Sequence record: OZ346158.1
Source of the DNA: a phage
Direction: 5' to 3' (one strand)
Length of the DNA stretch: 64,000 nucleotides
Made by a program: the position numbers and the translations under genes
Part shown: piece by piece, positions 653-42,611 of the stretch
Numbering within the stretch: the stretch's first letter is position 1
How the letters are laid out: each line of letters opens with the position of its first letter
Notes under the pieces: generated by a model
What the model was told of the DNA's origin: nothing
Database searches by the model: none
The model's input: the letters and a program-made list of their open reading frames with translations, nothing else

Positions 653-1050
653 TGATTACAGGTGTGAAGATTCTCCAATACCACTTAACCAAATTGGAAG
701 ATGCTGAAAAAGAGCTTGCAGAAGTTCTGAATAGTGGATATACTTTGCTATCATGCGCCTGCTCAGACACCTACGTTGTGTGGACACTTATCCGGAAGGA
801 AGAGCCTGCAGGGATCTTGGTGCCAAACCCTAAGATTATTAGTGAGGTGGATGACTATTCCCAGGACGGCCTGCCAGAAGGCTGGGAAGTATGGGAAGGT
901 GGTGAAAACCCTGCACCAGGTAAGTGGGTAAAATATAAACTACGTAGTGGTGCACAGTACGCTGACTACTCTGATGACCTAGACTGGAGTCATTCTTCAC
1001 CAGGATCGTCTGCAAGTTCATATGATATCGTTGCTTTTCAGGAAGAATAA
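652..1050 (+). CDS. hypothetical protein
   Basis: 132-aa ORF; start overlaps upstream stop (tgATGa), same-strand gene chain. Confidence 0.55.
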   Translation: MITGVKILQYHLTKLEDAEKELAEVLNSGYTLLSCACSDTYVVWTLIRKEEPAGILVPNPKIISEVDDYSQDGLPEGWEVWEGGENPAPGKWVKYKLRSGAQYADYSDDLDWSHSSPGSSASSYDIVAFQEE

Positions 1051-1578: not shown

Positions 1579-2361
1579 GCATTAGGAGACAGCAAATTGA
1601 AATTTATCTACAAAGAACACTACCACAAAGGTGTTGTGTGGAGCCTATTTGACGGATCTGGTGGTGCAGTCATTGACTGGGCAAAAGCTGGATATCTGTG
1701 CCTGTGCTTTAACGCAGAAGGTGCTGACCACGGCAGTTATGCAGAGGTGATCACCGATCATCCAAATATTCACTATGTAGATTATTGGATTGATCCATGG
1801 TTCCCTCAGGAAACTTTCTGCATGTACCCAGCTCCGGACTTTGTTCTTGCATTTCCTCCGTGCACCCACTTAGCGGTGTCAGGTGCTGCACACTTTAAGA
1901 AGAAGCTGGCTAAGGACCCGTTGATCCAGATTAATGCTGTAAAGGATGCTCGGGTTGCAGAAGAGTTGGGAGAGATTTACGATTGCCCGTGGCATGTAGA
2001 GAATCCTGTGGGTGTTATGTCCACACTGTGGCGCAAACCTGATTACCGTTTTCACCCTTCTGACTATGGCGGGTATTTACCGGAGGATGATGTAAACCCC
2101 TGGTTTCCTGAATTTATAGCTCCACGTGATGCCTATCCAAAAATAACTTGCGGCTGGATAGGTAATGGATTTATAATCCCGGCCACAAAACCTGTCCCGC
2201 AAATAGTTGACGCGGTTAGCGGGTATTCCATGCAACACGCCAAGCTGGGTGGAAAGAGTGCAAGAACGAAGATGATCCGAAGCCTCACACCACGTGGCTG
2301 GGCAAAAGCCGTATTCTTAGCAAACGAGCCTGTAGTAAGGAGCAGAATTAATGGGAAGTAA
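1567..2361 (+). CDS. DNA (cytosine-5)-methyltransferase-like protein
   Basis: LFDGSGG (motif I FxGxGG), FPPCTHLAVSG (motif IV PC-type), VENPVG (motif VI ENV-like); true start may be TTG near 1597 after aggaga. Confidence 0.6.
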   Translation: MGLFALGDSKLKFIYKEHYHKGVVWSLFDGSGGAVIDWAKAGYLCLCFNAEGADHGSYAEVITDHPNIHYVDYWIDPWFPQETFCMYPAPDFVLAFPPCTHLAVSGAAHFKKKLAKDPLIQINAVKDARVAEELGEIYDCPWHVENPVGVMSTLWRKPDYRFHPSDYGGYLPEDDVNPWFPEFIAPRDAYPKITCGWIGNGFIIPATKPVPQIVDAVSGYSMQHAKLGGKSARTKMIRSLTPRGWAKAVFLANEPVVRSRINGK

Positions 2362-4429
2362 ATTTATGGCATCTGCATACAACCGTTTCGGTGAGCCAAA
2401 CCCGAAAGCAACTAAGTATAAAAGTGGGGGAAGTGTGAAACGAGACTATCGTGATGAAAAAGAGGTTGAAACTGTAGAGACTGTTTTAGAAAATACTAAA
2501 ATTGTCCCTGTTCCACAACAAAATATCGGTCTGATGGCTGCACAATATTTTGGTGTGCGATCAGCATTGTCTCAAGAAGACGGTGTGACAGTTACTGCAA
2601 CATATTTCCCATATTACGACCGCTACGGAAATCTGTCAGGTTTCAAAAAGCGTGACTGGACGATTCCTAAAGAGCAAAGGGGCCATTTCTCAGTTGTTGG
2701 CATAGTAAAGGCTAACTCTCAGATGTTTGGGCAAAAGCTGTGTGCATCTTCCAACAACCGTAAGCAAATTAACGTTTGTGAGGGGGAAGGTGATGTTATT
2801 GCAGCATGGCAGGCTGCATATCAGATACAAGTAAAAGGGATTCTCACCAACGCTAAAGCCCCGGCAAAGGTGAAGCAGTGGGCTAAAGAGGTCCAGGACG
2901 GGATCGATGCAGTTATCAACGGTGGTGATCTGGCAGGAAAACCCTGCCTACCTTTTGTTGGAATTAACTGTGGATGTGCAAACGCAGTAGATACTTTTGC
3001 AAACAATGAGAAGTTTATCCGTAGCTATGGAACAGTTGTGCTGGCAATGGATAACGATGCAGCTAACGAGGTAGAGAAGCAAAAACACGTCATTAAAGGT
3101 GTCGAGGCCACGCACAATATCGCAGCATTTTTGATGGCTGATAACGTTTACCACGTAGAATACCCTGGTGAAGTAAACGACCCTGACGGTGTAAAAGATA
3201 TCCGAGACATGCTGAAGGCTAAAAAGCTGGAAGATATTGTCAACATGTTCCGGCATCCTGTTAAATATGTGCCTGATGCTGTGTCGGATTTAGAAGACTT
3301 CTCTATCGAGTCTTTGCGGAAAAAGACTTCCAACGGGGTAGATATCAGCGCAGAGTTCCCAAAACTGCAAAAAATGCTAAAAGGCTTGCACAAAGGTACA
3401 CTCGTAATGCTTACAGGCCCATCAGGTGGCGGTAAAACAACCGTAGCTAAAAAACTGGAACACTGTATTGCAAGATACCTAATGGACCCGACATGCCCGA
3501 AGGCTGATGACTATGAAGAGGATGATCGTCTATGTATGATCCATCTTGAGGAGGACCCAGAGGAAGCAATTAACTCCTTGTATGCAAACCAGTTAGGGTT
3601 TGATGTTAAAGAGTTTGTTGAAGATCCTAGCCAGTTTTTAACTGATCAAGAACACGCAGAGATTCATCAGTCATGGGCAAAAGCTGGAAAAATCAAAGTG
3701 TTCAAACATTTCGGGTCTATTCCGGTGGATGAGTTGATTACCAAGCTTAAGCAAATGGTTTGCCTGTACCATTGCCGTTATATTGTGCTGGATCACCTGT
3801 CCATGGTAATTTCAGGGCTTAATGTTAAGGATGAGCGAAAAGAACTGGACATGGCTATGACCCAACTGGCTGCGTTTTGTAAGCAGTTTAATGTGTTTAT
3901 CTTGGTGATCGCTCACCTCAAACGTACAGAGATTGTGCCTCCTAAGGACAAGGATGGTAACCCGTTACCTTTCTGGTATCCTGTGCGAAAAGAGAATTTG
4001 CGAGGATCGGCGGGGCTTGAACAGTTGAGTTGGGTAGTCATAGGTGTCGAGGCCGAAGAAATGGTGGATCGTTCTCGTGGACGTGTCCGTCTGGTAGGTC
4101 TTAAAAACCGTCCAGCAAAAACTCTAGGTATTGCTGACACTTTGGTTATGGACCCGCACACAGGTAAGTTCCATGATGCCAGTAATTGGTACTGGGACAA
4201 AGAAATGCAAATGTTTACAGACGGAGAAGGTGGGGAGGTTGTTTGGAGACCTCAGGCTATGTTTGAGGATCAGGAGCATGCAGTTGTAGAAACACCTATG
4301 GGCAAGGTTGTGGCTGATAAGGTTGTAACACCCACTGTCAAGCCTATTGACACGCAGGAAGACCTCCAATACGATGATCCATCCTCTGATCCGGTCCCTG
4401 GTTTTGAGGATGATGAAACACCTTTTTAA
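2351..4429 (+). CDS. DNA primase/helicase (T7 gp4-like; TOPRIM + DnaB-type helicase)
   Basis: CEGEGDVIAAW (TOPRIM E-G-x-x-D), Walker A LTGPSGGGKTT, 692 aa, immediately upstream of DNA polymerase. Confidence 0.75.
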   Translation: MGSKFMASAYNRFGEPNPKATKYKSGGSVKRDYRDEKEVETVETVLENTKIVPVPQQNIGLMAAQYFGVRSALSQEDGVTVTATYFPYYDRYGNLSGFKKRDWTIPKEQRGHFSVVGIVKANSQMFGQKLCASSNNRKQINVCEGEGDVIAAWQAAYQIQVKGILTNAKAPAKVKQWAKEVQDGIDAVINGGDLAGKPCLPFVGINCGCANAVDTFANNEKFIRSYGTVVLAMDNDAANEVEKQKHVIKGVEATHNIAAFLMADNVYHVEYPGEVNDPDGVKDIRDMLKAKKLEDIVNMFRHPVKYVPDAVSDLEDFSIESLRKKTSNGVDISAEFPKLQKMLKGLHKGTLVMLTGPSGGGKTTVAKKLEHCIARYLMDPTCPKADDYEEDDRLCMIHLEEDPEEAINSLYANQLGFDVKEFVEDPSQFLTDQEHAEIHQSWAKAGKIKVFKHFGSIPVDELITKLKQMVCLYHCRYIVLDHLSMVISGLNVKDERKELDMAMTQLAAFCKQFNVFILVIAHLKRTEIVPPKDKDGNPLPFWYPVRKENLRGSAGLEQLSWVVIGVEAEEMVDRSRGRVRLVGLKNRPAKTLGIADTLVMDPHTGKFHDASNWYWDKEMQMFTDGEGGEVVWRPQAMFEDQEHAVVETPMGKVVADKVVTPTVKPIDTQEDLQYDDPSSDPVPGFEDDETPF

Positions 4430-4487: not shown

Positions 4488-6881
4488 ATGAGCATGTGGT
4501 CGTTCGACTTTGAGTCATCCGGTTTGCTGGAAGATCCAGATCTTTATTATCACTGCGGCCTGTTTAAAGAGCTGAATAAGAACCGTTTTATGCTGTTCCT
4601 TCCTCTAAATGACCGCACACACTACTCCGAAGAGGATATAGAGAAGGCTAAGAACTTTATTCTGGCAAAGAAAACTCTTCATAAAGATTTTGAAGTTCGC
4701 ATAGCAGATTTTTCGGAGTTGGAAGGTTGGCTTACAGGCAATTCCGACTGGTCACCAACAGCTTTGAACTGCCATAACTGCTACAGTTATGACTTTATGC
4801 TGATGGAAAGATTATCCGGTATTCATTTTGATATGTTCCGTGATCCTAAATGCATGGGGACTATCAACGACCACCAGGTTAACCTGTTTGATACGTTGGC
4901 TATGAGCCGAATCTTGTGGCCTGATCGCCCTTTACCAAAAGGTTGTCCGGACGCTGTATTCAACCCGGTTACTAAGAAAATGCAACCTGTTGGTCCTCAC
5001 GGCCTTATGGCATGGGGCTACGCCCTTGGTAACCAGAAAGTTCAAATTGATGACTGGCGCGATCTTCCGCTGTGGAAATATGTGGATCGTGTGTTCGAGG
5101 ACGTTATCATCCAGGAGTTGCTCTGGAAAGAGTTGGTAGCGGAATCAAAAGGTGTATTCTACGGCAAATCTGACATGCAGAACTTTATGTATGACCCTGC
5201 CAAAGAGAAGCCTAAAGGATTCAAGAAGATTACCTGGAAGAATGCATTACGCCGAGGCATGCTGCAGCATTTCCTGATGGAGCTGCAGGCTCGACAGGGT
5301 GTGTATTTCGACATAGATGGGGCTATTGCTTTACGTGACCGCTGCGATGCGTGGATGAAAGAGATCGCTGATCGTGTTGAACCACAACTTCCTTTAAAAG
5401 AGTTATCAATGTCTCAGCGGCCTAAGTTCCCTGAAAAGCCGTTTAACCAGGATGGGACAATCTCCAATAATGGTTGGAAATGGTTAAAAGATAAGCTTGG
5501 CTATCCTGTAGACATGAGCGCTTTAGAATTCAAAGCCCCGCCTAAGCGAGCATTTACCTCCACAGGAGATGTCAGCAAGATGGGGATAAAATGGTGCGAA
5601 GAGATGGGCTGCAAAGACCCCGACAAGATGGCTGATTTCTTGAGAGGTTATATTAAGGGCACCTCCACACCACAACCTTTACCTAAAGAGCTGATGGATC
5701 AGGCAATAAGTGATCTGCAGCAGAAGCGAATGCCTGACTGCAAGATACCTATGAAAATCAGCAATCAGGACGACATTAAGCGATACCTGATCAGTGCTGG
5801 TTGGCTTCCGACAATGTGGAGAACTAAGGATGTAACTAAGGACAGCAAGAAGAAAGCTCTACCTGATGCAGATGTTGATGCACGAGTATATGCATACATG
5901 GACGAGCTTTTAGAGTCAGAGTATTGTGACCTAATTATCAACTTCTGGAACAAAACTGATGCTAAGTTTCAGACAACAGTGCACAAGTTCCGAAGCTTTC
6001 CTAACTCCGAAAGGATTAAAAAGGAAGTGTTCGGGAAAATACGCAGAAAAGCCAGGGCACTTATTACTTCTCCGCAACTGAAAGATACGTTTGGACACCT
6101 ATGTCCGAATCTTGAAAAATTGAACGGAGAGATGGCTAAAGATATCGTCTTGTGGTTATCATTGCGAAACCGCAGATCGGTCCTTGATCCAATCAAGGAG
6201 GATAAGGTTGATACTGGTCTTCTTAATCACCCACGTTTGAAGATTGACCATAAGCTTCCTGCTAAAAGCTCTGGATTAACAAACACTTCCCGACAGAAAC
6301 ACAGTATTTGTGCAAACATGCCTAAACCATCTCCTAAAGTGGTTATGGGTAAAGAGATGCGTAGCTTGTGGGGTGTTCCTCCTGGATACTTTGAGATCGG
6401 TATTGACGGGTCCAACTTAGAGCAGCTTATCGGGGCTTGGGGTGCCTTTGAGTTCGACAACGGCTTGTACTATGATGTTGTAAGTAACGGGGACGCACAC
6501 CAAAACAATGCTGAGGCATATACAAAAGTAGCAGGCAGAGAGGTGTCTCGTAACGACGGTAAACCTATCACGTATGGGGTTATGTACGGGGCACAAAAAG
6601 ATAAAGTTGCAGATATGCTGGATATCTCCCCAGAGTTGGGGCAAAGGGTGATCGATGCACTTTGGGATGCCAACCCCGGTCTTAAGGGGCGCAAAGAGGA
6701 TCTGGAGAAATTCTGGGAAGCAACGGGTAAGAAGTTTATCTACTCTTTTGATGGTCATGCCATCTGGACCCGATCTAAACACTCTTTACTTAATGCATAC
6801 CAACAGAATGGTGGTGCATCGCTGTGTGACTTGGTTGGGATACTTATGCACCACCAAATGGTGAAGCGTGGGTGGTACGAT
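4488..6881 (+). CDS. DNA polymerase, family A (T7-like), exon 1 (ORF runs to in-frame stop at 6917 inside the intron)
   Basis: N-terminal 3'-5' exo motif FDFESSG; KPITYGVMYGAQ resembles motif B; tail GASLCDLVGILMHHQMVKRGW aligns with the segment just upstream of motif C in T7 gp5 as recalled. Confidence 0.85.
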
Positions 6882-7753
6882 GAAGGTGTTCGTCGTATTA
6901 TTTATTACCATAAATAACATTGTGGCTTCGTGCAGTGATGCACGTCGAAAACCTCTTTAATTGACGGGAAGGCTAAGTTGACTTTTACACCTAAACATGG
7001 TAAAAGCTCAATATGCTAATCCGCAGCGAAGACTAAAGGGGTGTAGTTAAAATGGCTAGATCAGTTGATTATCACGGATATACCGTGTTTGATGATGGAA
7101 CAATACCTTTATCGAAACGTGATCATACAACAATGTTCTGTTTTGATAATGGTCGAGGTTACCTTTGCGTAACCATGTTCATCGAGGGGAAGCAGTGCAC
7201 AAAAGGTGTCCACCACTTGGTTGCTGAATGCTTTGTATCAAACCCTGATCCTGAAAGGCTCACATGGGTGAACCATAAGGACGGAAACAAATACAACAAT
7301 GCATACTGGAACCTTGAATGGACCACCCCTGGTGGAAATATCAAACACGCTTATGATAATGACCTCAGAGTAAGGCCAGTCGGTGAGTATAATGCCAACG
7401 CTGTACTGACCGAGGATGAGGTAACGGAGATTTGCGAACTGTTACAAAGTGGTTTACGACAATGCGAGATTAGGGATCTTGGGTATCCTTATGAGACGGT
7501 CAGAGCCATAAAGCAAAGAAGACAGTGGAAACATATCTCTAAAAACTACACCTGGTAGTAACGTTCAGAGACTATCGAAAGCATAGCGCCAACATAAATT
7601 GGTGCGAAGAAGCGAGTAGAGTAGGCCAGCAAGTGCGGTCGAAATGGGAGGTGCCTTGGTAACAAGGTAGTGAGATAGTCCGATCCATACAGGAAACTGT
7701 ATGGCTGTGCACGTAATGGTGCGGGGTAGCTTAACGACCTACCTGAACTATTG
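6882..7753 (+). mobile_element. group I intron in DNA polymerase gene (boundaries proposed)
   Basis: Conserved core elements read directly: P-like AATTGACGGGAAGG (about 6958-6971), Q AATCCGCAGC (7018-7027), R GTTCAGAGACTA (7563-7574), S GAGATAGTCCGATCC (7672-7686), P9 hairpin with GAAA loop (7685-7704); in-frame stop just after the 5' junction; HNH ORF between Q and R. Confidence 0.8.
7052..7558 (+). CDS. HNH homing endonuclease (I-HmuI-like), intron-encoded
   Basis: VHHLVAECF...VNHKDGNKYNNAYWNLEW HNH motif; own RBS aaagggg; lies inside the polymerase intron. Confidence 0.85.
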   Translation: MARSVDYHGYTVFDDGTIPLSKRDHTTMFCFDNGRGYLCVTMFIEGKQCTKGVHHLVAECFVSNPDPERLTWVNHKDGNKYNNAYWNLEWTTPGGNIKHAYDNDLRVRPVGEYNANAVLTEDEVTEICELLQSGLRQCEIRDLGYPYETVRAIKQRRQWKHISKNYTW

Positions 7754-39040: not shown

Positions 39041-39514
39041 CTAGTCTACCTGAACCCAACCGCCTGATACTTTTTTAAACATTCTTTGGTTATCACTGCC
39101 TCGGAACGGTTTCTTGGTTGGTAAATCTTTTACATACTTACCGTCAATGATGATATCAGCCAGTTTAAGAACATCACTAGAGATATGGTCAAATGTGAAC
39201 CCAGTATATACAAGAATAGTTTTCTTGTCACCAAATTTTTCCTTAATTTTCTCCATCAGGCTAATAATATCTGGCTCATTATAGTATGCTAAGGGTTCTC
39301 CACCCAGCAGAGAGATACCGCACACAGACGGGTTATCTAAATCTGACAAGATTTTTTGCAAGTCTTCTTCAGTGAACTCCCTCCCCTTATCTTTTGACCA
39401 AAATGCCTGATTAAAGCAACCAGGGCAAGCGTGTGGGCACCCAGATACCCACAAGGCAGTTCTAATACCTGGTCCTTCGGTGTAAGATATTTCTGTGTAT
39501 CCAGCAATGTTCAT
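39041..39514 (-). CDS. nrdG: anaerobic ribonucleotide reductase activating protein (radical SAM)
   Basis: CPHACPGC radical-SAM cluster motif, 157 aa, adjacent to nrdD. Confidence 0.85.
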   Translation of the reverse strand: MNIAGYTEISYTEGPGIRTALWVSGCPHACPGCFNQAFWSKDKGREFTEEDLQKILSDLDNPSVCGISLLGGEPLAYYNEPDIISLMEKIKEKFGDKKTILVYTGFTFDHISSDVLKLADIIIDGKYVKDLPTKKPFRGSDNQRMFKKVSGGWVQVD

Positions 39515-39690
39515 AGATACTCCGCATCACATTTAGGGCAATGCCAAATAAAATCGTCTAGTGCCTTGCACCAACGAAGATTACAACTACAGCCGCACTT
39601 GCAAATTTTATAAATACCTGATGACATACTGCACCTCCTAGCTCACTGTGTGTCAATAATATGCCACATCCTTGTGGCTTTTGTCAAGAA

Positions 39691-40935
39691 TCAGCAACCA
39701 CAACTTCCGTAGTGCTTAACTCGCTCGATAACTTCCGCTTGCTTACCTTTATTGTAAGGACGGGAGTTAGGACTGGAAAGGTATCCAGACACACGTCGAA
39801 TTACACTGATCGTTCCCTCTTCATGGTTTCCACACTCTGGGCATACAAAGCCTTTAGCTGTTGCACTGAACTCACCAGAGAAACCACACTTGAGACATTT
39901 ATCCACAGGTTGGTTAATACCAAAATACATAATGTGTTTATACCCGAAGTCAACAAGAGCCTCTAAAGCATCCAGGTTGTTTTTCAGGTTAGGTGTTTCT
40001 ACGTATCCGATGTTGCCACCAGAGGAGATCATAGCAAAACCTTCCTCATACTCCCACTTATCAAAAGGAGAGCTATTTATCCATACTGGCTGATGGAAAC
40101 TGTTGGTGAGATATTCATGCTCGTGCTTCAACACTTCCGGATATTCACGATCCAGACAGGTTGCAGCTTTATAGCATAGACTCTCAGAAGGAGTGCCGTA
40201 CAAGCTAAATGCTAGTCTACTTTCCTTCTTGTATCGCTCACAAGCATCTCTCATGTGCTGAAGGATTCCAAGAGCTAAAGCCTTGTCACCCTCTCTGCCC
40301 AAAATCTGACAGGTTTCATACACACCGATATACCCAATACTGATGGAAGCGTACCCGTCATAGAAGAGTTTATCAATACTCTCTTCAGGATCCAGGCGAG
40401 CAAGAGCGCCTTCACACCACATGATGGGGTTCTGCCCTGCCTTTGTTCCTTTTAGACGATTAACCCTTACAAGGTGAGCCTCGTATGCAAGATCCAAGTA
40501 TTCGTCAAGAACTGCAAAGAAATCAACACCTTCCGTCTTGGCTTTTGCCGCAATCATTGGCAGGTTAAGGCTAACAACGCCTAAGTTAAATCTGCCAAGG
40601 TATTTCTCCTCGCCTGTTTCCAAGTCATTGTATTTGCTAAGAAAACTCCTGCAACCCATGCTAGTTACTTTGCCATCTGTCGAGCCTGTCACTTTTCTAT
40701 TTAGTGGTACAGATACGAAGTCAGGATAGATACGTTCTGCACAGCATTCCAGAGCTAATCGTTTCAAATCATAGTTAGGATCCCCAGGGTTCATGTTGAC
40801 ACCCTCTTCCAGGAAGAACAGCACTTTAGGGAACACAGGTGTGATACGTTCTTCACCAAGACCCATTTTGTGGACTTTCAGGTAGTTTTTGGTAATCATT
40901 CTACCAAAGACCGAGGTATCCAGTCCTAAACTCAA
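39691..40935 (-). CDS. nrdD: anaerobic ribonucleoside-triphosphate reductase, exon 2 (C-terminal part; 5' end approximate)
   Basis: FSLYGTPSES, C-terminal Cys cluster and glycyl-radical motif IRRVSGYL; frame continues from intron. Confidence 0.85.
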   Translation of the reverse strand: MSLGLDTSVFGRMITKNYLKVHKMGLGEERITPVFPKVLFFLEEGVNMNPGDPNYDLKRLALECCAERIYPDFVSVPLNRKVTGSTDGKVTSMGCRSFLSKYNDLETGEEKYLGRFNLGVVSLNLPMIAAKAKTEGVDFFAVLDEYLDLAYEAHLVRVNRLKGTKAGQNPIMWCEGALARLDPEESIDKLFYDGYASISIGYIGVYETCQILGREGDKALALGILQHMRDACERYKKESRLAFSLYGTPSESLCYKAATCLDREYPEVLKHEHEYLTNSFHQPVWINSSPFDKWEYEEGFAMISSGGNIGYVETPNLKNNLDALEALVDFGYKHIMYFGINQPVDKCLKCGFSGEFSATAKGFVCPECGNHEEGTISVIRRVSGYLSSPNSRPYNKGKQAEVIERVKHYGSCGC

Positions 40936-41747
40936 TGTGATGAATGGAGTCTGCTGTCTCCTCCCTGTGTTTCCACAGGGCCAGACTATCTCTTACTCTA
41001 CTTCAATAAGATAATAACCCTTTATTGTGAGATGCTTACCTTCGGCATTTCCTTCGATAGCCCTATGAACGTTACCTACGTTCAAATTTAAGGCTTTTGC
41101 ACAGGCATAGAGTGAAGGATATTCACCAACCAAGGTTTTACCTTTGTATGCCTGCACTTTCCTATAGCACTTACCTGGACAAAGTCCTGTTCGGAAAGCA
41201 TGTCTCTTATTATCTTCCGGCAAAACCCACTCTAGGTTAGACGGATGATCATTCAATGTATTGCCATCTTTATGATTCACTTCCCAGTTTTCAGGGTCTA
41301 CTGGGACATCTGGCAAACAATACAAGGCAACAACCCTTGAGGTTTGGATTCGAATCTTTTTGCCTTTGTGGTTGAAAGAGTACATATAACGGCGTTTAAC
41401 ATGCTTGTTACCTTTTCCATAACCTCCCCACAATATTGGGTGTAGCATTCCACGTTTTCCGTATACGTTTCCAACCTCATCAATCACATAGTTTGATTCT
41501 TCACCATTAAGAATGATCTTTTTCATAGAGCCTCTCCATTTCGAAGTTAGTATTTCAACTAACCCCTACACTACTTGGTTCAGAAATGTTTGTCAAGCAT
41601 CTCTGCCTTTCGTTAGTCGTTACAACCGTTCCAACTCCTGTAAGAACTAGTCACGGGATTGGCATAGCTTTCGCCTTAGCGTTCCCCGTTAGCCGGATTT
41701 ACCGACCCCTCTTATGAGGTTAGGAGAGTTTTACAACGGCCAGTTTG
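40936..41747 (-). mobile_element. group I intron in nrdD (boundaries approximate)
   Basis: On - strand: R-like GUAACGACUAAC (about 41610-41622), S-like GAGAUAGUCUGG (40981-40992), P9 hairpin CCCTGTG-GAAA-CACAGGG (40963-40980); HNH ORF embedded. Confidence 0.7.
40993..41526 (-). CDS. HNH homing endonuclease, intron-encoded
   Basis: SRVVALYCLP...VNHKDGNTLNDHPSNLEWV HNH motif; RBS ggagagg; between the two nrdD segments. Confidence 0.85.
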   Translation of the reverse strand: MKKIILNGEESNYVIDEVGNVYGKRGMLHPILWGGYGKGNKHVKRRYMYSFNHKGKKIRIQTSRVVALYCLPDVPVDPENWEVNHKDGNTLNDHPSNLEWVLPEDNKRHAFRTGLCPGKCYRKVQAYKGKTLVGEYPSLYACAKALNLNVGNVHRAIEGNAEGKHLTIKGYYLIEVE

Positions 41748-42611
41748 TTAACCGTTGACAGAAGTTAACGTATTGATTTGATAGAGCAAAGTCTGCATGC
41801 TGTCAAATACGTCTTTATCTGTCATTTGCATTGCAACAGTCTCAGCATCTGGCAACCAATGTTCCTGGCAAAATTTAAGGTTCTTCTCATAGGTCGCTTC
41901 AGCATACTGTGCCAGATAATGATCAATATGGCTCATAGTCTGACCACCATATTGAGCACTAGCTACCGCACTAGAGATTTGGCTAAGGATTGTTGTTGCA
42001 ACCCCTATTGACTTCGGCTTACTGACATGGGCGTTACCAATGTTGAATCCGTTTTCCAACATATCTGGATAATTTACCAAACAACAGTTTGTTAACGGAC
42101 TGATCAAGTAGTCAAGATCATGCACATGGATGAATCCTTTATTGTGCTCTTCGGAGACACGGTCTGGCAGGATCTGTGTTGATGCAAGGTGTTTGCTAAG
42201 AATACCTGCAAGCAGGTCGCGATGAGTGTGTACATGATTAGTAGGCTTATTTGCGTTTTCTTTTGTAAATTCATCACAAGTTCGATCCAAGAAGCCACTA
42301 ATATCTGCAAGCAGTTTTCCACCTGCCTCTCTGTTATTATCTCTTGTCTGTCTATACTGGATGTATTCTCTGGCTGCACATTTTAAACCCATATCCATAA
42401 GAGCATCTTCAACAAGGATATGGATATTTTTTACAGAGATCGTGCACTGGTCGGTTGGTAGATTGTTAGCAACAACTTCATTAACCGCGCAGGCGATCCG
42501 GTAAGCTTCTTCTTCAGTATGTCCAGACTCAAGTAAGGCGGACTCTGCCGCCTTGATCACCTTAATTCCGTTATAGAACTCTTCTCTACCGTCCCGTTTT
42601 ACAACTTTCAC
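41748..42611 (-). CDS. nrdD: anaerobic ribonucleoside-triphosphate reductase, exon 1 (N-terminal part incl. ATP-cone; 3' junction not pinpointed)
   Basis: ATP-cone start MKVVKRDGREEFYNGIKVIKA; ORF ends at a stop just inside the intron. Confidence 0.8.
   Translation of the reverse strand: MKVVKRDGREEFYNGIKVIKAAESALLESGHTEEEAYRIACAVNEVVANNLPTDQCTISVKNIHILVEDALMDMGLKCAAREYIQYRQTRDNNREAGGKLLADISGFLDRTCDEFTKENANKPTNHVHTHRDLLAGILSKHLASTQILPDRVSEEHNKGFIHVHDLDYLISPLTNCCLVNYPDMLENGFNIGNAHVSKPKSIGVATTILSQISSAVASAQYGGQTMSHIDHYLAQYAEATYEKNLKFCQEHWLPDAETVAMQMTDKDVFDSMQTLLYQINTLTSVNG

Follow-up and report, generated by a model that had tools for sequence, protein, structure and literature searches.

A probable mobile group I intron of SPO1-like design, with an HNH endonuclease gene, in the nrdD gene of a Vequintavirus coliphage

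The analysed window, a 64,000-nt stretch of phage DNA (OZ346158.1), exhibits the anaerobic ribonucleotide reductase gene nrdD on its minus strand in the form of two ORFs, 42611..41748 and 40935..39691. The first has the C-terminal end LYQINTLTSVNG*; the second opens with a TTG codon and is translated as MSLGLDTS.... Both ORFs are present in the ORF listing as a preliminary description of this DNA had reported, and Pfam identifies an ATP-cone in the one and a Gly_radical domain in the other. The same description took the spacer between them, given as 40936-41750, for a group I intron with an HNH endonuclease gene. Does the locus contain one gene interrupted by an intron, or two genes with an insert that stays in the RNA? 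We consider it very probable that the insert is a mobile phage intron of the IA type, with the layout of the SPO1 polymerase intron, splitting nrdD within the conserved NGQTPF motif, after the Gly codon and before the Gln codon.

A comparison with intron-less nrdD of related phages, proposed earlier as a means of defining the insertion site, fixes this site exactly. In an alignment with the intron-less nrdD of rV5_ev156, the insert (minus strand, 41750..40954, 797 nt) corresponds precisely to the gap. The 5' edge at 41750 is thereby retained, while the other edge moves from 40936 to 40954: the last 18 nt of the presumed spacer belong to exon 2 (QTPFIT). The true start of exon 2 at position 40953 (CAG ACU CCA UUC, for QTPF) lies 18 nt upstream of the TTG at 40935. 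The junction is AAC GGG|CAA ACU in the intron-less allele and AAC GGU|...|CAG ACU in the window. Joining 42611..41751 to 40953..39691 restores a NrdD of 707 aa, identical to that of rV5_ev156 at all 707 residues. This spliced NrdD exhibits the Pfam domains ATP-cone, NRDD and Gly_radical, and the NRDD match is a single one that covers the entire profile (1-562 of 562) and crosses the exon junction. The parts of the locus are as follows.

41751..42611, minus strand: nrdD exon 1, 287 codons, with the ATP-cone and the start of the NRDD domain; 3' end AAC GGU.
40954..41750, minus strand: group I intron, 797 nt, opening with UAA; terminal G at 40954.
40993..41526, minus strand: HNH homing endonuclease ORF, 177 aa, filling the P8 loop of the intron.
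39691..40953, minus strand: nrdD exon 2, 420 codons and the stop, including the glycyl-radical motif RVSGYL.
Insertion point: target site sequence without the intron, TCTGTCAACGG|GCAAACTCCATTC; intron-less site of rV5, TCTGTCAACGGGCAAACTCCATTC.

The UAA that opens the intron is an in-frame stop directly following exon 1. We also considered an intein at this position and rejected it: the first intron codon is this in-frame stop, and the HNH ORF lies in a different frame context with a start of its own.

Ribozyme elements were placed in the intron with the help of the T4 sunY sequence and its Rfam structure line. From 5' to 3' in the RNA, they are the following.

41734..41757, minus strand: P1, exon sequence CAACGGU (41757..41751) with the internal guide GCCGUUG (41740..41734).
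41723..41728, minus strand: P3 5' strand CUCUCC, pairing with GGAGAG.
41691..41719, minus strand: P3.1 (CCUC-AUAA-GAGG) and P3.2 (GGUCGG-UAAAU-CCGGCU), our names for the additional hairpins that separate P3 from P4; from folding and covariation.
41653..41689, minus strand: P4, P5 and P5a, the last capped by GAAA; from folding and covariation.
41624..41652, minus strand: P6 (GAC/GUU) and P6a (GUUCUUAC/GUUGGAAC); from folding and covariation.
41614..41618, minus strand: P7 5' strand GACUA, with the R-like GGUUGUAAC ahead of it; core shared with T4 sunY.
41543..41605, minus strand: P7.1 (CAGAGAUG/CAUUUCUG) and P7.2 (GGGGUUAGU/ACUAACUUC), then GAAAU; order as in T4 sunY.
41532..41537, minus strand: P3 3' strand GGAGAG; from folding.
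40995..41531, minus strand: P8, GCUCUAU (41531..41525) with GUAGAGU (41001..40995).
40981..40992, minus strand: S-like element GAGAUAGUCUGG, with the P7 3' strand UAGUC at 40988..40984.
40963..40980, minus strand: P9 hairpin CCCUGUG-GAAA-CACAGGG, read from the sequence; its variants are given below.
40954..40962, minus strand: 3' tail AGGAGACAG, with the terminal G.

Structured RNA thus flanks the HNH ORF with 224 nt before it and 39 nt after it. The S-like element followed by the hairpin CCCTGTG-GAAA-CACAGGG, already noticed in the preliminary description, is found at 40992..40981 and 40980..40963. In P1, the final U of exon 1 (U41751) stands opposite G41740 and forms the U.G pair of the 5' splice site. 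Covariation in related introns affects all seven P1 pairs, whose closing pair is most often U.G (37 of 57). P2 is absent between P1 and P3. The P5 sequence GCUAAG...UAUGC appears to resemble the 11-nt GAAA-tetraloop receptor, a well-established motif.

The whole scheme, parsed by hand, comprises 79 pairs, a single one of which is non-canonical. It contains the entire conserved core of a group I ribozyme, with the P4 to P6 and P3 to P8 domains, the P3/P7 pseudoknot and the R and S elements. A hand alignment shows that it fits five diverged introns with at most one non-canonical pair each: that of the window, two ORF-less Vequintavirus introns (L001, L018) and two unrelated introns from IMG/VR (L019, L011), nearly every helix differing in sequence. 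P3 exhibits compensatory changes in all four of the latter, and the same pairing is seen in at least nine lineages; a scripted search for the P3 3' strand downstream of GAAA separated poorly from its controls (mean best helix 6.6, controls 6.0), so that we rely on the individual clear cases. An unconstrained minimum free energy fold of the 231-nt 5' segment has a free energy of -77.5 kcal/mol (z = -5.16), with none of 200 shuffled sequences as stable. It recovers P1, P3, P3.1, P3.2, P4 to P6a, P7.1 and P7.2, including the long-range P3 pairing.

For a wider comparison we built a covariance model of the 5' half of the intron (R1) from three well-aligned Vequintavirus sequences. R1 identifies one site in the window, 41612..41757, with 160.8 bits, and 56 sites in IMG/VR loci. 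The resulting alignment of 57 introns has 91.9% of its cells paired, against 61.0% after shuffling and 34-47% with slid partners; both-side changes occur in 36 of the 38 pairs, and none of 500 shuffles matches the observed value on any measure; since the alignment was fitted to the model, these counts are biased towards the structure. MAFFT alignments of the diverged introns (A1, A2) placed the variable hairpins out of register and were excluded from pair counts. The model-based statistics cover the 5' half apart from P3, whereas P7.1 to P9 rest on the five hand-aligned sequences and a few structure-neutral substitutions. Eight ORF-carrying variants have few substitutions at paired ribozyme positions, and these keep the pairs: the closing G.U of P8 becomes A-U in the variant of FV3, and in P9 a U-A becomes U.G in EI-SP-GF. 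In the ORF-less form a C-G of P9 becomes U-A.

About 30 of the 57 related introns have the two hairpins that separate P3 from P4; there, 96% (P3.1) and 93% (P3.2) of their cells are paired in the R1 alignment, and P3.2 closes with a conserved G.U, G-C, U.G series. When upstream sequences were recovered with a core pattern, 26 of the 57 distinct ones ended in GCUAA|CGGGG, nearly all of these folding as two adjoining hairpins directly 5' of P4. Our literature search returned no published name for this pair of hairpins.

The covariance-model scan suggested in the preliminary description had a divided outcome: R1 matches strongly, as given above, and Rfam does not reach its threshold. A scan of the whole window at Rfam gathering thresholds gave no match. 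The Intron_gpI model (RF00028) scores 27.8 bits in the window (E-value = 9.5e-5; gathering score 50), the alignment being made to run across the ORF. For the ORF-less form the score is 29.8 bits, also below 50, and the alignment is end to end and starts exactly at P1. The T4 sunY intron reaches 105.3 bits with the same model, so RF00028 is not weak in general. The nrdD intron departs from RF00028 most visibly by the two P3-P4 hairpins and the absence of P2, and the hairpin insert is probably the source of the low score. Failing this threshold means that a curated cut-off is missed, not a defining property of group I introns. Phage introns are under-represented in the Rfam and GISSD models (PMC11878797).

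An HNH endonuclease at 40993..41526, as first described, is borne out by Pfam: the 177-aa ORF matches HNH_3 with 29.1 bits (cut-off 24.8). For a C-terminal DNA-binding module of the NUMOD kind, PF22083 (I-HmuI_NUMOD-like) gives a weak match of 18.4 bits, below its cut-off of 27. PHROG 59, "HNH endonuclease", matches with an E-value of 1e-25. The sole PDB match obtained by phmmer, a weak one (E-value = 6.8e-4, 22.6 bits, residues 8-160 of 177), is I-HmuI (1U3E). In this alignment NHKDGN...SNLEW...EDN of the ORF faces DHKDGN...TNLRW...KIN of I-HmuI; the catalytic His and Asn residues are aligned, and the Asp preceding the His is replaced by Asn in the nrdD-intron protein. The ORF is embedded in the ribozyme. 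The 5' strand of P8 holds the A and U of its AUG, the last U of the P8 3' strand opens its UAA stop, and the stop codon overlaps both this strand and J8/7. In all eight variants the ORF is intact, with neither frameshifts nor stops. They exhibit 34 distinct substitutions, of which 29 are at third positions and 30 are synonymous against 4 non-synonymous (pN/pS 0.036). Given this ratio and the intactness of the eight variants, the comparison indicates that the HNH protein is under purifying selection. Among records of the phage collection, 28 encode it with at least 95% identity, and the other matches are below 60% (at most about 48% among those listed). This distribution suggests that the protein travels with the nrdD intron.

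The closest described relative of the nrdD intron is the DNA polymerase intron of Bacillus phage SPO1, which encodes I-HmuI (Goodrich-Blair et al. 1990) and homes by nicking (Landthaler et al. 2004), both as cited in PMC3984707. Both introns exhibit P3, two hairpins, GCUAAC and P4 in this order, as well as P7.1, P7.2 and an endonuclease ORF in the P8 loop. The SPO1 sequence reads CCCAGUG-AAC-hairpin-GGUGU-hairpin-GCUAAC-AGGGG, with GCGCUGGG as the 3' strand of P3, and R1 matches it with 27.1 bits (E-value = 2e-7). Since the hairpin arrangement and the P8-loop ORF are the same and R1 matches, the nrdD intron is SPO1-like in design. The two also have the I-HmuI endonuclease family in common, as far as the weak phmmer match (E-value = 6.8e-4) goes. 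They differ in their hosts, the SPO1 intron residing in a polA-type polymerase gene of a Bacillus Herelleviridae phage and ours in nrdD of an Escherichia coli Vequintavirus. The second hairpin of SPO1 is much longer, and its ribosome-binding site is in a loop, whereas the putative one of the nrdD intron is in the 3' strand of P3.

The preliminary description had seen in this insert an echo of the T4 nrdD intron (sunY). This applies to the host gene, and does not extend to the insertion site, the endonuclease family or the loop that harbours the ORF. The T4 intron shares the gene and the conserved region with ours, and its core is of the IA type, has no P2, contains P7.1 and P7.2, and carries GAAAC before the 3' strand of P3. 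The R and S sequences and the order of core elements match, and the junction sequences GUAAAA, AACGGG, AACGACUA and AGAUAGUC are common to both. However, the T4 insertion is after the first base of a Tyr codon (YEVNTL; AYE-Y-EVNTLFSSNGQTPF), 32 nt upstream of the window site, and the aligned nrdD sequences have no indels between the two sites. In the T4 intron, positions 236-1012, 3' of P9, hold the gene for the GIY-YIG enzyme I-TevII, whereas the window intron encodes an HNH_3 enzyme in the P8 loop. T4 sunY has no hairpins between P3 and P4 and scores 105 bits with Rfam, against 28-30 bits for our intron, and R1 does not match the T4 intron even at E-values up to 10. The T4 and Vequintavirus nrdD introns entered this conserved stretch independently.

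The occurrence of two endonuclease-bearing introns within 35 kb, which had been called notable, is unremarkable for this group of phages. rV5 carries introns in its terminase gene, the only ones that its paper describes (PMC3606486). Certrevirus CB7 has 23 homing endonucleases, and its HNH introns, in other genes, were verified by RT-PCR; its nrdD is described as a single gene (CB7_188), and the description does not mention an intron in it (PMC7344957). CB7 and rV5 belong to the same subfamily (Vequintavirinae) as the phage of the window and have HNH introns in replication, packaging and nucleotide-metabolism genes, all different from the gene that harbours the window intron.

Within Vequintavirus the site is polymorphic. 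The nrdD region of the window is 94-99% identical to that of many rV5-like coliphages, the best match being slur16 (99.1%). Of 122 nrdD records from Vequintavirus, 28 carry the ORF-containing intron, 14 an ORF-less intron of 257 nt at the identical site, and about 80 no intron; about a third of the records thus carry an intron here. EmilHeitz (MZ501062), WalterGehring, MaxBurger, FV3, FFH2 and slur16 have it at the same site with 797-798 nt. In these and other carriers the nrdD-intron region is 94-99% identical, the ribozyme parts are nearly invariant and the HNH protein is at least 95% identical, which is essentially no difference from the window intron. Compared with rV5_ev156, the window differs at 7 of 2124 coding positions, and six of these seven differences are at -144, -99, -90, -21, 0 and +3 from the insertion site. 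Between -11 and +20 no differences occur among the sampled alleles that carry the ORF. Such clustering is the co-conversion pattern expected from homing, and with seven substitutions it may be read as a small-count indication of it.

What remains to be weighed is whether the element acts as an intron in this phage. A once self-splicing ribozyme could by now be defective, or need the help of host or phage factors, and the HNH enzyme could be inactive, as is reportedly the case for the T4 nrdB intron with I-TevIII. The low Rfam score, the Asn instead of Asp adjoining the catalytic His, and the circulation of an ORF-less derivative would agree with such decay. However, nrdD is otherwise intact and under constraint, the substitutions in the eight variants keep the pairing (P8 G.U to A-U, P9 U-A to U.G), and the ORF, free of frameshifts and stops, has a pN/pS of 0.036. 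The two-hairpin insert, the probable source of the low score, is shared by the SPO1 intron, which is self-splicing. We therefore regard decay as very unlikely. We find it highly improbable, too, that nrdD is a genuinely split gene, with the insert staying in the RNA and NrdD consisting of two assembling polypeptides, as is said of NrdA in Aeromonas phage Aeh1, which is split by mobE. Two long ORFs are indeed available, with a TTG six codons into exon 2, and splicing of this element is itself read from sequence. Moreover, related phages harbour endonuclease insertions that do not splice (PMC7344957). Against this, a complete covarying ribozyme core is kept, even in the 257-nt ORF-less form, and the boundaries fit group I chemistry exactly, with U.G at the 5' site and a terminal G. 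At the junction, exon 2 opens with QTPFIT and has no start codon; a start at the TTG would drop these six conserved residues.

The last alternative, a free-standing HNH cassette inserted in nrdD whose likeness to an intron is due to chance, is effectively refuted by structure and covariation. Such HNH genes are common in these phages, and the Rfam gathering score is reached nowhere. Yet the ORF is surrounded by 224 nt and 39 nt of structured RNA with all core helices, R1 gives 160.8 bits on the window and detects 57 homologous 5' domains, that of the SPO1 intron among them, and the ORF-less form occupies the identical site. With a full core, an exact indel, the U.G pair of P1 and the terminal G, the earlier interpretation of the spacer as a group I intron with an HNH endonuclease gene holds, and we predict that the intron is spliced.

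In such an intron, ribosomes completing exon 1 would halt at the UAA that opens it. The RNA would fold into P1, P3 to P9, P7.1, P7.2 and the two hairpins between P3 and P4; guanosine would attack after U41751 of the U.G pair, the terminal G at 40954 would set the 3' splice site, and the ligated mRNA would give the normal 707-aa NrdD. The HNH enzyme, presumably acting like I-HmuI, would nick or cleave nrdD of a co-infecting Vequintavirus without the intron, and repair from the intron-carrying genome would copy the intron together with some flanking exon sequence. Expression of the enzyme may be linked to splicing. GGAGAG could double as the 3' strand of P3 and as the Shine-Dalgarno sequence of the HNH gene. 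Because this putative ribosome-binding site (P3 3' strand) and the start codon (P8) are inside core helices, RNA folding and endonuclease translation are probably mutually exclusive: once folded, the ribozyme would mask the signals for translation, and ribosomes passing through would pull the core apart. A search for sigma-70-like promoters within the intron found none, which says nothing about phage promoters. In phage PhiPA3, an intron endonuclease has been shown to damage a gene of rivals in co-infection (PMC11620839). That the nrdD intron is likewise an active weapon against intron-less co-infecting Vequintaviruses, its endonuclease gated by ribozyme folding, and that it is an SPO1/I-HmuI-type module moved between phages of Firmicutes and Enterobacteria, is a speculative proposal that we think rather unlikely as a whole.

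The intron is a real but ordinary phage mobile element, already annotated as an intron in sister phages, and nothing in it should surprise specialists. In the GenBank records of the BASEL phages, nrdD is a two-piece join around a "putative homing endonuclease" in EmilHeitz and around the ORF-less form in HeinrichReichert. The join lengths agree with intron sizes of 797 and 257 nt and with a remaining coding sequence of 1911 nt in each case, and the boundaries had been set by comparative genomics (PMC8594841). Most other Vequintavirus records have two separate nrdD genes annotated. Our literature search found no description of the RNA structure or splicing of this nrdD intron in any phage. New here are the exact coordinates, the structural model, the affinity to SPO1 rather than to T4, and the population picture.

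The two "nrdD" genes with an intervening "hypothetical protein" in many Vequintavirus records are accordingly to be read as one gene with a mobile intron, and the exact splice coordinates permit a correct prediction of the NrdD protein. The insertion provides a second independent nrdD intron site, 32 nt from that of T4, where the enzyme is most conserved. This choice of site is consistent with homing endonucleases favouring invariant sequence in nucleotide-metabolism genes. With no intron, an ORF-less intron or an ORF-carrying intron at the same position in near-identical coliphages that are candidates for therapy, this polymorphic site offers a natural system for the study of homing and marker exclusion.

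At the nrdD insertion site of Vequintavirus genomes more than one form of the intron is found. Exactly the same site is occupied in 14 phage records (e.g. HeinrichReichert, L001 1251..1507) by a 257-nt intron lacking an ORF. Its 5' half is about 86% identical to that of the HNH-bearing intron, its P7.1, P7.2 and P8 elements differ from those of the latter, and the ORF-less allele carries its own set of silent flanking changes (positions -27 to +12 relative to the insertion site). By sequence comparison, the ORF-less intron seems to represent a second lineage and not an HNH-bearing intron that simply lost its gene. The three 'rV5_ev' phage records compared (LR699804, LR694165 and LR694610) exhibit nearly identical nrdD exons, and the intron is present in ev146 and absent from ev156 and ev168. 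The HNH protein itself is 100% identical between the window and phage magaca; at its codon 76 (window 41300, minus strand) the window encodes valine, against glutamate in all seven other variants compared.

The ribozyme exhibits a pair of hairpins between P3 and P4:

41691..41719, minus strand: paired hairpins of the nrdD intron, also found among the IMG/VR loci L010-L083 and in the Bacillus phage SPO1 intron (L089, about 920..990)

The closing pairs of the second hairpin (G.U, G-C, U.G) are conserved. The hairpin pair was identified in 26 of 57 distinct sequences with the core pattern, SPO1 included, and is the hallmark of a large class of group I introns from phages; introns possessing it also tend to score poorly in Rfam. 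Our literature search found no published name or role for it. The P5 element (41662..41680, minus strand) reads GCUAAG...UAUGC, one base pair off the 11-nt GAAA-tetraloop receptor in its canonical form (CCUAAG...UAUGG); the related introns of L019 and L042 have this canonical form exactly. The L9 loop (40970..40973, minus strand, in the window) reads GAAA in all five introns compared, and a tertiary contact between L9 and P5 is suggested.

The other intron named in the preliminary description lies in the DNA polymerase region:

4488..6917, plus strand: family-A DNA polymerase ORF, upstream of the intron
about 6918..7704, plus strand: polymerase intron
7052..7558, plus strand: 168-aa ORF, downstream of the polymerase ORF

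The 168-aa ORF has no Pfam match at E-value 0.001 or better, but a 64-aa stretch of it is 42% identical to the nrdD HNH protein. It is followed on its 3' side by UCAGAGACUA ... GAGAUAGUCCGAUCCAUACAGGAAACUGUAUG, which end near 7703, and the Rfam Intron_gpI model matches this 3' end (22.9 bits, E-value = 0.009). Since this intron is on the strand opposite to nrdD and was not matched in a search of the window with R1, a covariance model of the nrdD intron 5' half, it belongs, on these criteria, to a different lineage.

Some relatives harbor additional insertions at two places in nrdD exon 2, neither of which is present in the window. Relatives also annotate a small ORF downstream:

L002, about 2357..3106: insertion of phita32, also in C2 and JEP1; it carries an ORF of 170 aa, and its 3' end resembles that of a group I intron (Rfam, 35.3 bits at 2954..3059)
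L003, 3347..4373: insertion of nomine, about 1 kb, close to the nrdD 3' end
about 39511..39627, minus strand (window; coordinates inferred by offset): 38-codon ORF in the nrdD-nrdG interval that overlaps the start of nrdG; hypothetical or 'putative anaerobic ribonucleoside-triphosphate reductase' in relatives' records

Among the IMG/VR loci, L020, L040, L064 and L070 each contain two or three separate R1-type intron 5' domains in a span of a few kb. Five others (L014, L016, L026, L031 and L062) combine the 5' architecture of the nrdD intron with an ORF in the P6 loop, replacing the HNH gene in P8. These ORFs open with MFIYKI.N..NGK.Y.G, which resembles a GIY-YIG motif. The P6-loop ORFs and the P8 HNH gene exemplify endonucleases that have independently invaded one ribozyme family.
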